Part shown: in pieces, positions 2,194-5,702 of the stretch
Numbering within the stretch: the first letter of the stretch is position 1
Layout: each line of letters starts with the position of its first letter
Origin: a virus
Taxonomy: Duplodnaviria; Heunggongvirae; Uroviricota; Caudoviricetes
Reading direction: 5' to 3' (one strand)
IMG/VR virus record: IMGVR_UViG_2671180770_000006
Length of the DNA stretch: 5,784 nt
Notes under the pieces: model-generated
Databases searched by the model: none
What the model was told of the DNA's origin: nothing
The model's input: only the letters and a program-made list of their open reading frames with translations
Program-made: the position numbers and the translations under genes

Positions 2194-2655
2194 CTACTGG
2201 TTACGTTTCTTTAGTGCCAGCATGTTCTCGAAGGCTTCCTCGTAGAGCTTGTTTAGTCCACGTAGCTGGTTAAGGAGTTTGGCTTTTTCTGACGCAGGTA
2301 GAATCTCGAAGAGGTTAAGTAACTCTGCCTGTTCTTCATTGACCAGCCTCCATCCTTTGCCTGAAAAGTTATCATCATAATTATCTGATGATCTTACATA
2401 ATTCATTAAGTCTTTAAGGTCTTCTCGAATGTCCTCTGGTTTTACCTTTAACAGAGCCGCAAATTTTAGCGCAGCGTCGGTATTTACCGGTATCTTGCCG
2501 TTCAGATACTGGCTAACGGTGCCTTGAGATTCGAATCCCAACAACTCAGCCGCCAGCTCTTGAGTCAGCTTCAGCTCTTTTTTTCTTGCATTCCATGCGG
2601 CTTTTAAATTCTTGCTCGCTTCTGGAGTTGCAATCACTTCGCGTGTTTTTTTCAT
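2194..2655 (-). CDS. racR: Prophage immunity repressor, CI/RacR-like, XRE-type HTH near the N-terminus, 153 aa; no recognisable LexA/S24 autocleavage domain
   Basis: HTH-like segment LTQELAAELLGFESQGTVSQYLNGK; divergent from a Cro-like gene across about 100 bp; terminator immediately downstream; C-terminal half lacks a peptidase-like motif. Symbol given by architecture match to the Rac RacR-YdaS-YdaT module, not by verified identity. Confidence 0.8.
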   Translation of the reverse strand: MKKTREVIATPEASKNLKAAWNARKKELKLTQELAAELLGFESQGTVSQYLNGKIPVNTDAALKFAALLKVKPEDIREDLKDLMNYVRSSDNYDDNFSGKGWRLVNEEQAELLNLFEILPASEKAKLLNQLRGLNKLYEEAFENMLALKKRNQ

Positions 2656-2732: not shown

Positions 2733-2762
2733 TTGCTCGAGGCATAACGTAGAAGGTTGGCT

Positions 2763-3038
2763 ATGAACTTAAGAGACTATTTAAAAGAGAAACATATCAC
2801 CCAGCTACAGTTTGGGAAGCTAACGGGTTTATCTCAGGTGCATGTAAGTCGAGTGCTGGGGGGCTATGAAAGATTCAGCCCTGAAAAAGCATTACGTGTT
2901 GCTGAAGTAACGAATTTCGAGGTTACACCTCATGAACTCCGGCCTGATATTTACCCGAATCCAACCGACGGCTTACCTGTTGGATTCAAGGCTAACACAC
3001 CAAATGCATCGGAGTTGATTCATGAAAATCAGGCATGA
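2763..3038 (+). CDS. ydaS: Cro-like small HTH regulator (YdaS family-like), 91 aa
   Basis: ATG at 2763 with GAAGG 6 nt upstream (the track's 2757 start is a TTG). HTH-like ITQLQFGKLTGLSQVHVSRVLGG and an ELRPD motif; divergent from the repressor. Symbol is by family resemblance. Confidence 0.75.
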   Translation: MNLRDYLKEKHITQLQFGKLTGLSQVHVSRVLGGYERFSPEKALRVAEVTNFEVTPHELRPDIYPNPTDGLPVGFKANTPNASELIHENQA

Positions 3039-3447
3039 GCACATCCGCATGGCGATGAATGCCTGGGCGCGTCCTGATGGCGAAAAAGTTCCAGCAGCTG
3101 GAATAACCCAGGCTTATTTTGAGTTGGGTATGACGTTTCCTGAACTGTATGACGACAGCCATCCGGAAGCCCTGGCTCGCAATACACAGAAAATTTTCCG
3201 CTGGGTAGAGAAAGACACCCCTGATGCAGTTGAAAAAATTCAGGCGTTGTTACCAGCGATCGAAAAAGCAATGCCGCCTCTGCTGGTGGCCCGAATGCGC
3301 AGCCACAGTTCAGCTTATTTTCGGGAGCTGGTGGAGACGCGGGAACGACTGGTGAGAGACGCTGATGATTTTGTCGCAGTGGCGATCGCTGGTTTCAACC
3401 AGATGAATCGTGGTGGCCCGGCGGGAAATATTGTGGTTGTGCATTGA
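3022..3447 (+). CDS. ydaT: YdaT-like protein (reported CII-type functional analogue in Rac/CP-933P-type prophages), 141 aa
   Basis: N-terminus MKIRHEHI and C-terminal ...VVVH match my recollection of YdaT-family proteins; GGAG 7 nt upstream; overlaps the Cro-like stop by 17 nt, consistent with coupling. Assignment is from memory, not a search. Confidence 0.7.
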   Translation: MKIRHEHIRMAMNAWARPDGEKVPAAGITQAYFELGMTFPELYDDSHPEALARNTQKIFRWVEKDTPDAVEKIQALLPAIEKAMPPLLVARMRSHSSAYFRELVETRERLVRDADDFVAVAIAGFNQMNRGGPAGNIVVVH

Positions 3448-3518
3448 CTGACAATATTCATACCGGATCGCTTCCGGCAATTCGTGAGTAAAAAGATTCG
3501 GTATCAGAAGAGGTGAGT

Positions 3519-4559
3519 ATGGCTAATGCCTGGCTCAGATTATGGCATGACATGCCAAATGATCCTAAGTGGCGAACAATTTCCAGGGTGTCAGGACAGC
3601 CAATTGCAACAGTGATGGCGGTGTATATCCACCTTCTGGTGAGCGCGTCACGAAATGTCACGACATGTCACGGCGTGTCACTACGTGGTCACATTGATGT
3701 CACGACGGAAGATTTAGCAAGTGCGCTTGATGTGACGGAAGAAGTAATTGATTCAATTTTACAGGCAATGCAGGGGCGGGTACTTGATGGAGATTTAATC
3801 ACCGGATGGGAAAAACGCCAGGTACTGAAAGAGGACAATGGCAACGTTTCACAAACCGCGAAATCCCCAGCAGAGCGCAAGAGAGCGCAGCGCGAGAGGG
3901 AAAAATTACGAAAACAGAATGAGGGGTGTCACGACGAGTCACGCATATGTCACGACATGTCACGACGAGTCACGACAGATAAAGATACAGATAAAGAATT
4001 AAACCCCACACATAACGCGCACGTGCGCGAGAGTGATCCGACCAGTGAGTCGAGTGGTACGCCGTTGCAGGCAGCAGAACCTGCATCCCTGGATGGACTG
4101 AGCGAACCCATCGGGAAATTTCCGATGGTCGATGGCTGGCATCCGTCGCCGGATTTTCGACGACGGGCTGCGTTGTGGGGGATGGCTTTGCCGGAGCCGG
4201 AATTTACACCTGCTGAACTTGCCGCTTTCCGGGACTACTGGGCAGCGGAGGGGAAAGTTTTCACGCAGGTTCAGTGGGAGCAGAAATTCGCCCGTCACGT
4301 AAATCACGTCAGGGCGCAGGTTAAGCCAGTCAGCAAGGGGGTAAACCATGCAGCAGCACCAGGTGGCACCGCATCACGGGCAGTTCAGGAAATTCGGGCA
4401 GCACGTGAGCAGTGGGAACGTGAAAACGGATTTATCAGCGACGGAAACGGTCTGGAAGCTGTGGGAACTCATGGGGGAGGTTTATTCGAACCGCTGGACC
4501 CAGAAGAACGGGGCCGCACCTTCGAAGCTCTGGATTGCACAGATTGGCGCGATGACTGA
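3519..4559 (+). CDS. Replication initiator (lambda O functional analogue): N-terminal domain, low-complexity charged linker and C-terminal domain; contains the putative origin
   Basis: Sits immediately upstream of a P-like gene; two arrays of GTCAC(GAC) direct repeats plus an AT-rich tract lie inside the ORF, the linker-embedded arrangement known for ori-lambda in gene O. ATG at 3519 with AGAGG 5 nt upstream (track start 3513 is a GTG). The last 212 nt overlap the P-like gene out of frame, so the true C-terminus is uncertain. Confidence 0.65.
   Translation: MANAWLRLWHDMPNDPKWRTISRVSGQPIATVMAVYIHLLVSASRNVTTCHGVSLRGHIDVTTEDLASALDVTEEVIDSILQAMQGRVLDGDLITGWEKRQVLKEDNGNVSQTAKSPAERKRAQREREKLRKQNEGCHDESRICHDMSRRVTTDKDTDKELNPTHNAHVRESDPTSESSGTPLQAAEPASLDGLSEPIGKFPMVDGWHPSPDFRRRAALWGMALPEPEFTPAELAAFRDYWAAEGKVFTQVQWEQKFARHVNHVRAQVKPVSKGVNHAAAPGGTASRAVQEIRAAREQWERENGFISDGNGLEAVGTHGGGLFEPLDPEERGRTFEALDCTDWRDD
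3647..3708 (+). repeat. Iteron-like array 1: six direct repeats of GTCAC(GAC) at 10-11 bp spacing (starts 3647, 3657, 3667, 3677, 3688, 3699)
   Basis: Counted directly. The helical-turn period places the repeats on one DNA face, and the phase drift makes the protein read CHD / SR / VTT in rotating frames. Confidence 0.7.
3928..4003 (+). repeat. Iteron-like array 2: five GTCACGAC-type repeats (starts 3928, 3938, 3949, 3959, 3969) followed by AT-rich GATAAAGATACAGATAAAGAATTAAA (3978-4003); candidate origin core and unwinding element
   Basis: Counted directly. The iterons-then-AT-rich layout parallels ori-lambda; the AT tract itself contains GATAAAGA twice. Confidence 0.65.
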
Positions 4560-5013
4560 GCAGCAAATCCGACAGGTCTGCCGCCAGTGCATGGACCGCT
4601 GCCGGGCGGGTGAAACATGGCCTCCGGACCTGGCTGAGTTTGTGGCACTGATTTCGGAAAGCGGAGCCAATCCATTCGGTCTGACGGTGGATGCTGTGAT
4701 GGAGGAGTACCGCCGCTGGCGCAATGAGTCCTGGCGATATGACGGAAGTGATAAGTACCCGTGGCCTCAGCCTGTGCTGTATCACATTTGCCTTGAGATG
4801 CGTTCAAAGGGGATTGAGCGCCAGATGACCGAAGGGGAATTAAAACGGCTTGCAGAACGGCAGCTGACGAAATGGGCAAAGCATGTTAGTAACGGCCTGA
4901 GCGTTCCGCCAGTCCGGCGACAACTGGCGGCACCCAAACGCCCGTCGGGGCCAACGCCAATTGAGTTGCTAAAACAGGAATATGAACGCCGGAAAGCGGC
5001 TGGGTTTGTTTGA
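4348..5013 (+). CDS. Lambda P-like replication protein (DnaB helicase loader), 221 aa
   Basis: Recalled lambda P motifs align: ...PSPGQFVAW... with PPDLAEFVAL, ESYPWK with DKYPWP, and ELRRKAADELVHMTARI with ELKRLAERQLTKWAKHV. AAGGGGG lies 6 nt upstream of the ATG at 4348. An alternative start at 4471 is possible. Confidence 0.8.
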   Translation: MQQHQVAPHHGQFRKFGQHVSSGNVKTDLSATETVWKLWELMGEVYSNRWTQKNGAAPSKLWIAQIGAMTEQQIRQVCRQCMDRCRAGETWPPDLAEFVALISESGANPFGLTVDAVMEEYRRWRNESWRYDGSDKYPWPQPVLYHICLEMRSKGIERQMTEGELKRLAERQLTKWAKHVSNGLSVPPVRRQLAAPKRPSGPTPIELLKQEYERRKAAGFV

Positions 5014-5045: not shown

Positions 5046-5702
5046 ATGGAGACTGTTTTTGACGCACTGAAAGCGATGGGAAAAGCCACGTTGGTAGAGC
5101 TGGCTGCGCGACTTGATATCAGTCGTGAAGAAGTGCTGAACGAACTATGGGAACTGAAAAACGTTGGTTTCGTTGATAAAAGCGCGTACACCTGGCGTGT
5201 GGCTGATAACAACGTTCAGCAGGAACAGCCAGCGCAGGCAGAACTGCCGGAAGAAACCACCACAGCAACAGTAGCGAAAATCTCAGAGTGCGATTTAACC
5301 GCAACGATTGAACAACGCGGACCACAAACGGCGGATGAACTGGCTACGTTTTTCTGCATCACATCACGCAAAGTGGCTTCAAAGCTGGCAATGGCAATCA
5401 GTAAAGGTCGTCTGATTCGCGTTAATCAGGACGGTAAATTTCGTTACTGCATACCGGGCGCTGATTTACCGGCAGAGCCGGAAGCTGCATCCGTAGCGGA
5501 AACGGATGGTAAAGCCTTTCCTCAGCCAGCAGGTGCTGCGTTACCAGTCCGGGACGCAGCAACACAGGAAGAAATTAAAACAGAAACTGTGGCGGACATT
5601 GTGCAGCCGTTGCCATCGTTTACCGAAACGCAAGCAGATGAGCTGATTTTTCCGTCCCTTCGCAGGGCAAACCTAGCGCTGCGCAGGGGCTTTGTTGAAT
5701 AA
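5046..5702 (+). CDS. Hypothetical protein with two tandem winged-helix-like segments, 218 aa; first gene of the nin-equivalent region after P
   Basis: GGGAGGA 5 nt upstream of the ATG at 5046. Residues about 14-52 and 92-135 both show a helix-turn-helix then beta-hairpin pattern ([39 protein letters not shown] and [43 protein letters not shown]). Confidence 0.65.

Follow-up and report, generated by a model that had tools for sequence, protein, structure and literature searches.

The O and P genes of phage lambda are the closest described system: an origin-binding initiator carries iterons within its own gene, and the gene of the helicase loader lies directly after it. In classical lambda genetics, work attributed to Furth et al. 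in 1978, the C-terminal end of O is said to be the part that contacts P. The two genes overlap by 4 nt, and this end of O comprises 31 residues closing with TNTDWIYGVDL. The ydaU-ydaV pair of the K-12-type Rac prophage occupies the same position in a module that runs from a dicA/racR-like repressor through ydaS/ydaT, initiator and loader to ydaW/DUF1627, but its loader is DnaC-like, its initiator ends in IPPGFRG, and its genes stand 6 nt apart with no overlap. Coding in two frames is known from phiX174 A/B/K and D/E, lambda Rz/Rz1 and MS2 L, where constraint is asymmetric, one product being conserved and the other free to vary or disordered. We searched the literature for a description of an overlap between an initiator gene and a P-like gene of the present kind and found none.

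The DNA analysed here is a 5,784-nt stretch of a Caudoviricetes record (IMGVR_UViG_2671180770_000006), hereafter the window, and the module concerned serves replication in a Rac-like lambdoid prophage. Among 5426 complete E. coli genomes, 1256 carried the element, and a single genome could hold as many as 6 copies. The initiator and P-like open reading frames have 212 nt in common, the P frame running one base ahead of the initiator frame. All positions given by the first-pass annotation (the ends of both frames, the ATG at 4348, the ATG at 4471 with its 89-nt overlap and the ATG at 4552) were confirmed on recheck. The features of the locus are as follows.

3513-4559, plus strand: replication initiator frame from the list of open reading frames, 348 aa from GTG 3513 with stop TGA at 4557-4559, made up of an origin-binding N-terminal part, a DnaT-like domain and a C-terminal tail
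4119-4319, plus strand: DnaT-like ssDNA-binding domain, initiator aa 203-269 (Pfam DnaT PF17948, 63 bits)
4335-4341, plus strand: Shine-Dalgarno (SD) sequence AAGGGGG for the P-like gene, 6 nt before the ATG, in the disordered linker of the initiator
4348-4350, plus strand: proposed true start codon ATG of P, from the conserved ATG, the SD and the initiator residues across the ATG
4348-5013, plus strand: P-like helicase loader frame, 221 aa plus stop (PF06992, phrog_109, Foldseek of the AF2 model)
4348-4559, plus strand: dual-coding overlap of 212 nt, the last 70 initiator codons (aa 279-348) and the first 70 P codons (aa 1-70)
4348-4431, plus strand: P leader, aa 1-28, predicted disordered and unconstrained, sharing DNA with the initiator tail helix
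4377-4424, plus strand: conserved amphipathic tail helix, initiator aa 289-304, RAVQEIRAAREQWERE (AF2, substitution classes, polymorphism)
4432-4559, plus strand: first helices of the equivalent of P domain II, aa 29-70, under P-frame purifying selection
4432-4559, plus strand: distal initiator tail, aa 307-348, acidic and Gly-rich, predicted disordered
4471-4473, plus strand: ATG of Met42, the start of many annotations of about 180 aa in other genera, probably internal to helix 29-54
4552-4559, plus strand: ATGACTGA, the ATG of Met69 overlapping the initiator stop TGA (4557-4559), RefSeq/PGAP start of a 153-aa 'replication protein P'

The initiator matched phrog_1408 and phrog_3992 (replication initiation / primosomal protein), and its RefSeq homologue, from a locus 99.5% identical to that of the window, begins at the ATG equivalent to 3519. 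In the AF2 model of its C-terminal fragment the DnaT-like domain reached a pLDDT of 85-90, and a helix was predicted at fragment residues 95-110 with pLDDT below 50 on both sides. Repeats of the TGTCACGAC type with 10-nt spacing, at 3645-3706 and 3924-3986 within the initiator gene, form iterons of a putative origin. The frame thus has the predicted features of a phage initiator with a DnaT-like domain and with iterons in its own gene, as in lambda. Another parallel with lambda is that the C-terminus of the initiator varies with the kind of loader encoded after it. Nevertheless, the overlap is 212 nt long and out of frame, and the initiator carries a tail of about 80 aa with a conserved helix. 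Compared with the classical phage overlaps, this one is terminal rather than an embedded gene, the lambda counterparts of its two genes interact physically, the dominant frame switches midway, and the overlap coincides with the boundary of a recombination module.

Profile scores assign the P product to the lambda-P-like helicase loader family, as a predicted loader. PF06992 was matched with 60.3 bits against a cut-off of 26, with an alignment from residue 55, and phrog_109 ('P-like helicase loader') with an E value of 5.9e-64, residues 19-220 corresponding to profile positions 22-235 of 236. The AF2 model of P had a mean pLDDT of 69; residues 1-29 fell below 50, indicating disorder, and the rest was helical, with a helix at 29-54. 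The top three PDB matches in Foldseek were lambda P chains of the DnaB-lambda P structure 9oa1 (E 8e-5 to 2e-4), at TM scores of only 0.36-0.39. In lambda P, residues 1-29 form a disordered domain I and domain II starts at about residue 30 (PMC12661323); the leader of about 28 residues in the window P is positionally equivalent to that domain I. It was unconstrained, whereas in the lambda-type P of two other loci (L033 and L034) the first ~30 residues resemble lambda P.

The overlap is widely conserved. In 26 independent loci, drawn from about 15 enterobacterial genera (Escherichia, Citrobacter, Enterobacter, Klebsiella, Salmonella, Pluralibacter, Phytobacter, Kluyvera, Pectobacterium, Erwinia, Buttiauxella, Samsonia, Limnobaculum and others), neither frame was interrupted over an overlap of 149-224 nt, even where P identity had fallen to about 45-50%, and the relative frame of the two genes was identical in every one. 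Two orphan P genes with no initiator upstream (L026, L029) and two degraded loci (L028, L032) had been excluded. The arrangement was also found in the complete genome of Citrobacter phage Chris1 and in all 69 analysable near-identical viral contigs; the scan of viral contigs returned only sequences of 96-100% identity, so it served for polymorphism and not for deeper divergence. Over the same stretch the third frame contained 2-10 stops in every locus, and beyond the overlap, along the remainder of the P genes, the initiator frame met one stop per 19 codons. When the P protein was held fixed and synonymous codons were randomised, the initiator frame stayed open through the overlap with a probability of 0.007-0.12 per locus. 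These comparisons indicate that both frames are open beyond chance and conserved in diverged relatives.

Constraint was divided between the two frames. Within 4360-4407, changes silent in P but altering the initiator occurred at a rate of 0.025-0.05, the reverse class at 0.10-0.12 and neutral changes at 0.149. The initiator frame is under purifying selection across 4360-4410, where the P frame is nearly neutral. Ten phylogenetically independent pairs gave a ratio of 0.57 for the initiator helix zone (p = 0.014), and among 48 haplotypes the polymorphisms of this zone altered P only in 5 cases, the initiator only in none and both in 1. The balance was reversed in 4432-4559, with changes silent in P at 0.09-0.16, near neutral, and changes altering P at 0.00-0.06; zone Z3 within it had a ratio of 3.2 (p = 3e-10, independent pairs). 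P-frame constraint starts at about 4432, upstream of the ATGs at 4471 and 4552, and over 4444-4551 its strength matches that seen in the P-only portion of the gene. Strictly upstream of M42 the ratio was 1.68, only moderately significant (p = 0.018, independent pairs); W39 was invariant and Met42 nearly so. No segment was strongly constrained in both frames at once. Comparison of conservation in the two frames, which the first-pass annotation had proposed as a check, therefore points to purifying selection specific to each frame, on the initiator in 4360-4410 and on P from about 4432.

We consider it likely that the overlap is genuine, evolutionarily maintained dual coding, with P made from its own SD and ATG and with constraint split between the frames. 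This was one of three options in the first-pass annotation, and it agrees with the 26 diverged loci, the conserved ATG and SD and the frame-specific constraint.

Beyond about 4430, residue-specific constraint on the initiator frame was detected neither by substitution classes nor by pairs nor by polymorphism, and changes silent in P ran at 0.117-0.164 in the distal tail against 0.149 in the control. The distal tail is preserved as an open frame whose first codon position is rich in G and poor in T, not in its individual residues. A stop-forming T occurred in 0 of 299 risk contexts in the overlap, compared with 27.7% in the P-only region, and a second count gave 1 of 187 against 140 of 466 in control columns; the sites at risk varied freely among G, C and A. 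At four-fold third positions of P in the overlap, G made up 52% and T 8.8% (35.5% and 21.4% in the control), in the same direction in 22 of 26 loci (chi-square p = 1.6e-14, a value that, like the pooled counts, overstates independence because the lineages are related). The resulting G-start codons encode acidic and small residues. It is nevertheless conceivable, though unlikely, that the tail matters only to the end of its helix (about 4424) and that the other ~45 codons are tolerated read-through whose openness is unrelated to the protein. The lack of residue-specific constraint there, the disorder predicted by AF2 and an end point that ranges over alignment columns 64-88 are all consistent with this. 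However, stop-forming codons are systematically avoided at sites that vary, the tail extends to at least column 64 in every locus, the stop at column 76, the ATGACTGA position, is kept in 18 of 26 loci, and the base bias at the first codon position argues for selection on tail composition. A possible reason for tolerated read-through would be that ribosomes do not terminate within the 5' part of the P message.

The start signals of P point to a conserved independent start within the initiator gene. An ATG equivalent to that at 4348 was found in 27 of 27 aligned loci, with an SD-like GGAGG, GGGGG or GAGG at most ~12 nt upstream in nearly all of them. The mean energy of the anti-SD duplex was -9.6 kcal/mol at this ATG, -5.2 at M42 and -2.5 at M69, the last being equal to the background of -2.5 kcal/mol. 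In the window the P frame is closed by TAA at 4342-4344, and the ATG at 4348 comes two codons later. The initiator residue pairs over the ATG were exclusively those compatible with xAT|Gxx (H, N, Y or D followed by A, V, G or E), and in L010 and L019 there is no alternative ATG, GTG or TTG between this ATG and the equivalent of M42. RNA folding near the start (4300-4420) was not unusual (z = -0.96), which leaves a structure-gated start unsupported. Given the initiator protein, openness of the P frame over its first 36 codons was not significant (median probability 0.69), and the first ~28 P codons showed no P-frame constraint; the 4348 start therefore rests on its signals, on constraint from about 4432 and on the profile alignments.

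A start at the ATG of Met42 (4471), which would leave 41 upstream P-frame codons untranslated and a true overlap of 89 nt, is quite improbable on this evidence. Near-invariance of Met42 agrees with it, as do the unconstrained codons 1-28 with their non-significant openness and the forms of about 180 aa that PGAP and others call in many genera, from which phrog_33198 was built. On the other hand, it would not explain the conserved ATG at 4348 with its strong SD, next to which the SD at Met42 is weak, nor the P-frame purifying selection and the invariant W39 upstream of 4471; it would halve the predicted helix 29-54, and the phrog_109 alignment begins at residue 19. Even with a Met42 start, the 89-nt dual-coding overlap would stay.

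The annotated start at 4552, with a product of 153 aa, an 8-nt overlap at ATGACTGA and an upstream P frame open by chance, is very hard to sustain. It is the choice of RefSeq/PGAP and of several phage records, and ATGACTGA resembles a termination-reinitiation junction. In addition, hhalign aligned the P family to lambda-type P over residues 76-221 only, starting downstream of M69, so that the N-terminal ~75 residues were unalignable to lambda-type P by this method. The first-pass annotation had held that lambda P similarity reaches upstream of 4552; this stood for Pfam (residue 55), for HMMER with the solved lambda P (starting at profile position 58 of the A2 alignment, near window residue 62) and for PHROG (residue 19), but not for hhalign. 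Since hhalign begins only at residue 76, similarity to lambda alone cannot place the start, and as similarity reaches upstream only in part, the decisive evidence is the within-family P-frame selection from about 4432. That selection runs through 4444-4551, and the ATG at 4552 has no SD above background. Moreover, 4 of the 26 loci have Leu at the position of Met69, 8 of them have the initiator stop at another place than ATGACTGA, and a product begun at 4552 would be missing domain I and roughly half of domain II. The homologues share the ATG and SD equivalent to 4348 rather than those of 4552, in line with the doubt raised earlier about a 4552 start. The RefSeq start, 68 codons late, is thus very probably a truncation.

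Programmed frameshifting into an initiator-P fusion protein is a highly doubtful purpose for the overlap. Fusions exist in databases (the 482-position profile phrog_15931, P0108 and P0186), but P0108 is a 1-nt deletion directly after the P ATG and P0186 is fused at another place; passing from the initiator frame to the P frame would need a +1 shift, no prfB-like site was seen on reading the sequence, and P has a conserved SD and ATG of its own. The chance that an artefact or a recent lesion produced the overlap, either a sequencing indel near 4340-4380 or a frameshift past an ancestral initiator stop, as had also been offered, is negligible: the frameshifted relatives in databases (P0108, P0186, L028, phrog_15931) are sporadic and nothing in them is specific to the window, whereas the arrangement recurs in the 69 near-identical contigs and, in one relative frame, in the 26 diverged loci, the same DNA is present in the 1256 complete E. 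coli genomes with both genes annotated intact in the two RefSeq loci inspected, and no initiator homologue paired with this type of P stops near 4350-4380.

With dual coding as the preferred reading, we examined where the tail occurs. The same tail was found behind initiators with DnaT, Phage_rep_O, HTH_36/DnaD_N or DUF1376 domains or with no Pfam match, and tail and P together behind at least 4 different Pfam-defined initiator cores. The initiator of L021 shares 50% identity with lambda O over aa 159-268 before changing to this tail, and IPPGFRG is the terminus of initiators that have no P-type loader as partner. With the tail alone as query, a word-index protein search gave nothing but fragments at contig edges; in an exhaustive search the full-length proteins with the tail, few in number, always had it at the extreme C-terminus, and the remaining matches were fragments or low-complexity noise. 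The end of the tail, LDCTDWRDD, was likened to the end of lambda O, and this likeness was set aside, because W alternates with R depending on which Ile codon the P frame uses. The division of constraint between frames and the movement of tail and P as one recombination cassette are two points that go beyond the first-pass annotation.

These observations suggest that the initiator tail, above all its helix, is a putative loader-specific docking end of the initiator. In the preferred reading, the P-like loader is translated from its own SD and ATG inside the linker after the DnaT-like domain, and the initiator is read on, one base behind the P frame, for 70 further codons to its TGA. In the first third of the overlap the predicted initiator helix lies over the free-to-vary, disordered leader of the loader; in the last ~125 nt the DNA encodes the first helices of loader domain II, with the distal initiator tail kept open and compositionally biased. 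The tail may act toward the loader as the C-terminal end of lambda O does toward lambda P, and, being embedded in the 5' end of the loader gene, a matched tail and loader would stay together through lambdoid recombination. More tentatively, the 212-nt segment may be a two-frame specificity cassette that joins the docking helix and tail of the initiator to the N-terminal, initiator-facing region of the loader. That loader region comprises domain I and the beginning of domain II, where this P departs from the lambda type.

For annotation, 'replication protein P' is 153 aa in both RefSeq E. coli loci inspected and often about 180 aa in other genera; in such forms the leader and as much as half of the domain II equivalent are missing, and anyone cloning or modelling the annotated P would be working with a fragment. 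The overlap also provides a natural example of constraint split in overlapping frames, with an ordered segment set over a disordered one. For phage mosaicism, it means that the exchangeable unit is not bounded by the ends of genes, the loader gene carrying the tail of the upstream initiator in its second frame. If the two-frame cassette is real, matching interaction surfaces would be inseparable by recombination, and an origin-binding core of any kind, once recombined in frame ahead of P, would gain the right adaptor for that loader. This offers a hypothesis for how initiator-loader specificity, the subject of the 'chain of interactions' of lambda genetics, may survive rampant recombination.

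The window represents the early-right part of a Rac-like lambdoid prophage and carries the following genes:

2194-2655, minus strand, dicA/racR-like repressor
2757-3038, ydaS/cro-like gene
3022-3447, YdaT-family gene
3513-4559, replication initiator with a DnaT-like domain
4348-5013, lambda-P-like ORF (P, 221 aa)
5046-5702, DUF1627/YdaW gene

The nearest records are Rac-SA53, the PPompW prophages of Stx2a phages and one E. coli chromosome (99.5% identity over 4250-5013). The initiator and P are two overlapping ORFs, and both are ordinary members of known families, a DnaT-domain phage initiator and a P-like helicase loader. All results on them are computational. The DUF1627/YdaW-like ORF encodes 218 aa, while its homologues in three compared loci (L001-L003) have 244-275 aa and extend ...RELRRAK.HVQKWERVCAALRELNKHRD; the shorter end in the window could come from a frameshift near the C-terminus or from divergence of this end.

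The initiator frame runs without a stop as far as the TGA at 4557-4559, while the P frame opens at 4345 directly after a TAA and has an ATG at 4348 with AAGGGGG upstream (4335-4341), giving an out-of-frame overlap of 212 nt. All coordinates stated in the first-pass annotation proved correct, including that a P start at the ATG at 4471 would leave an overlap of 89 nt and that the ATG at 4552 shares ATGACTGA with the initiator stop. Relative to the initiator, P is shifted one base ahead, P position 3 being initiator position 1 and initiator position 3 being P position 2, and almost no change is synonymous in both frames. A sequencing indel near 4340-4380 had been proposed as one explanation, which was dismissed because both frames are open in the same relative phase in 26 loci with an intact initiator before a P of the window type. 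Comparison of these homologues, from a scan of one genome per species that gave 32 loci, showed that the overlap, taken from P ATG to initiator stop, spans 149-224 nt and that the arrangement is kept at P identities down to about 45-50%. Exceptions were two orphan P genes without an upstream initiator (L026, L029), L028 and L032 as degraded copies, and four loci with a lambda-type P, in which the two open frames share 22-113 nt (22-29 nt for three of them); in lambda itself O and P overlap by 4 nt, in contrast to 212 nt in the window. A 221-aa P and the 212-nt overlap were kept in 69/69 analysable loci on IMG/VR contigs with 96-100% identity to the window. The phage genome of Citrobacter phage Chris1, deposited as complete, shows this arrangement too, its overlap being 215 nt. 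The third frame contains 2-10 stops over the overlap stretch in every locus. A Buttiauxella locus (L024, 2563-3582) has a P frame of 339 open codons that extends well before the conserved ATG (2929) and covers much of the initiator gene; we take this to be chance.

Public annotation of P varies, with lengths of 153 aa (start at 4552, Met69; RefSeq E. coli and Rac-SA53), 136-140 aa (other phage records), about 180 aa (start equivalent to 4471, Met42; many other genera) and 221-223 aa elsewhere. Annotations in compared loci that give 153 aa (Met69 equivalent) or a still later start (136-140 aa) are:

L039, 4803-5264
L040, 1800-2261
L001, 2079-2540
L003, 2074-2535
L002, 2093-2515
L121, 1739-2149

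Five lines of evidence, from sequence comparison and structure prediction, favour the start at 4348. An internal, conserved ribosome-binding site and ATG mark this position: an equivalent ATG is present in 27/27 loci, with an SD-like GGAGG/GGGGG/GAGG immediately 5' of it in nearly all of them, and the overlying initiator residues differ among loci yet are always compatible with xAT|Gxx (H/N/Y/D then A/V/G/E). The mean anti-SD duplex energy is -9.6 kcal/mol at this ATG, -5.2 for Met42 and -2.5 for Met69, where it equals the background mean. These start signals sit within the disordered linker of the initiator, immediately before its tail helix. In L010 and L019, no further ATG, GTG or TTG occurs before the Met42 equivalent. 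P residues 19-220 align to positions 22-235 of 236 in the 'P-like helicase loader' profile phrog_109. Purifying selection in the P frame, detailed below, is visible from about 4432, and W39 is invariant. In the AF2 model of P, which like that of the initiator is of moderate confidence (mean pLDDT 69 and 64 for the two), residues 1-29 are disordered and the first helix spans 29-54 with Met42 inside it. This predicted layout mirrors that of lambda P, whose intrinsically disordered lasso, domain I (1-29), precedes a domain II beginning near residue 30 (PMC12661323). Within the first ~28 P codons, a variable leader whose alignment is uncertain among distant sequences, P-frame constraint was not detected, and openness was not significant with the initiator protein held fixed (median probability 0.69).

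Selection is partitioned within the overlap, where constraint switches cleanly from one frame to the other; comparison of the two frames, which the first-pass annotation had proposed as a check, placed initiator constraint at 4360-4407 and P constraint from about 4432. When substitutions were counted in sliding windows across 82 sequence pairs, with multiple hits ignored, P-silent, initiator-altering changes were rare at 4360-4407 (0.025-0.05) and initiator-silent, P-altering changes were near neutral (0.10-0.12). From about 4432 P-silent changes reached 0.13-0.16, close to the 0.149 obtained for neutral synonymous change in the P-only part, and P-altering changes were already 0.03-0.06 in windows wholly upstream of 4471. 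Since such pairwise counts ignore multiple hits and pooled statistics overstate independence, we added analyses of independent pairs and of polymorphism. Across 10 phylogenetically independent pairs, purifying selection in the P frame was supported at 4432-4470 (ratio 1.68, p = 0.018) and 4471-4554 (ratio 3.2, p = 3e-10), while the independent-pair ratio at 4360-4407 was 0.57 (p = 0.014). Among 48 haplotypes of close relatives, five P-only and no initiator-only polymorphisms fell at 4360-4410, and 15 initiator-only, two P-only and three affecting both at 4444-4559. Both frames are weakly constrained at about 4408-4443. The stretch with initiator constraint matches a predicted helix (aa 289-304, RAVQEIRAAREQWERE, nt 4377-4424), which in the initiator model follows a confident DnaT-like domain and has low-confidence, presumably disordered flanks.

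In the distal initiator tail (aa 307-348), residue-by-residue constraint was not detectable, and its apparent motifs LFEPLDPEERG and DW.DD are dictated by the conserved P residues YSNRWTQKNG and QIG.MT. A rival reading is that this segment is tolerated read-through, open for translational reasons. Stop avoidance and composition show that the initiator frame is maintained through it. A synonymous T at P third positions that would form an initiator stop occurred in 0/299 contexts in the overlap versus 203/734 (27.7%) in the P-only region; column by column these stop-risk sites still vary freely (G 108, C 65, A 13, T 1; control columns T 140, C 133, A 99, G 94). When synonymous P codons were randomised, the initiator frame stayed open across the whole overlap with a probability of 0.007-0.12 per locus, and across the post-helix part with 0.05-0.22 in 25/26 loci (0.54 in L031, which has a short overlap). 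In the overlap, G makes up 52% and T 8.8% of four-fold degenerate P third positions, compared with 35.5% and 21.4% downstream (chi-square p = 1.6e-14; same direction in 22/26 loci), a G-rich, T-poor pattern that is that of a coding first position favouring Gly, Ala, Val, Asp and Glu. The earliest initiator termination is at alignment column 64, and 18/26 loci stop at one common column, at ATGACTGA; this stop at GATGACTGA (4552-4559) is held via a conserved P-frame ACT Thr codon, and the P-silent change rate falls there to 0.09 from about 0.13. Either the stop position or the acidic DD/DE tail end seems to be under selection. We read the distal tail as selected to be open, acidic, flexible and of roughly fixed length.

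Tail and P are co-inherited behind different initiator cores: DnaT-domain proteins with several N-termini, Phage_rep_O (L020), HTH_36/DnaD_N (L021), DUF1376 (L023) and three further initiators without a significant Pfam match (one spurious sub-threshold hit). Between loci with differing cores, similarity starts at about the P Shine-Dalgarno sequence, and close relatives in E. coli carry the same tail and P behind initiator open frames of 355, 374 and 392 codons. An exhaustive search placed the tail at the extreme C-terminus of full-length proteins (317-360 aa). Over lambda O aa 159-268 the L021 initiator shows 50% identity; it then carries the tail of ~80 residues, whereas lambda O ends with 31 residues (...TNTDWIYGVDL) exactly where the L021 protein diverges. 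Two initiators without a P-type partner end in IPPGFRG: YdaU of K-12-type Rac (L038 1228-2016), followed by DnaC-like YdaV, and the 'O' protein of vB_EcoS-689R5 (L037 2620-3690), with no annotated loader next. This motif could be a short element that docks DnaC or DnaB. With the tail on unrelated cores and IPPGFRG or lambda O ends elsewhere, the extreme C-terminus of the initiator thus co-varies with loader type, and in the window-type family its coding sequence lies within the loader gene. Initiator-P fusions also occur in databases, such as phrog_15931, a 482-position profile matching the initiator at 1-347 and P at 280-482. The fusion in database protein P0108 arose from a 1-nt deletion immediately following the P start codon, and P0186 is fused near EERGG|TSDMWIAQIG. 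These entries are probably sequencing errors or pseudogenes, a real fused variant being less likely.

Within the initiator gene, TGTCACGAC-type repeats with 10-nt spacing form two clusters (3645-3706 and 3924-3986, at least three copies each), and account for recurrent peptide motifs (for example VTTCHD and MSRRVTT) in several frames. These are probably iterons of the module's replication origin; the lambda ori is located within O. A mosaic joint lies at about 3977-3997, at the end of the second cluster in the DKDTDKELNPTHNA segment, with 87-88% identity to phages including vB_EcoS-689R5, Evi and Tritos upstream and 94-95% to Rac-SA53 and PPompW downstream.

We propose that the tail helix would recruit the P loader or a loader-DnaB complex, by analogy with lambda O, whose C-terminal part reportedly contacts P according to classical genetics and biochemistry (Furth et al. 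1978; Zylicz et al. 1984; Wickner and Zahn 1986). The overlap would then keep a matched tail and loader inseparable during recombination. Speculatively, both specificity surfaces lie within the overlap segment, which fits the fact that P residues 1-75, opposite the tail, are the part not aligning with lambda-type P. Long overlaps read out of frame, with asymmetric constraint, are a familiar feature of phages. We found no description of this one in literature searches covering lambdoid replication modules, ydaU/ydaV or overlapping genes, or in the consulted lambda P papers. What is new is a version of the initiator-loader module, unlike the lambda architecture, that carries a long overlap of a known type. 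The annotated P is very probably truncated in both RefSeq loci inspected (2/2), and the practical importance lies in how common the arrangement is, its element being present in 1256/5426 complete E. coli genomes (23%), with several copies in O157:H7.
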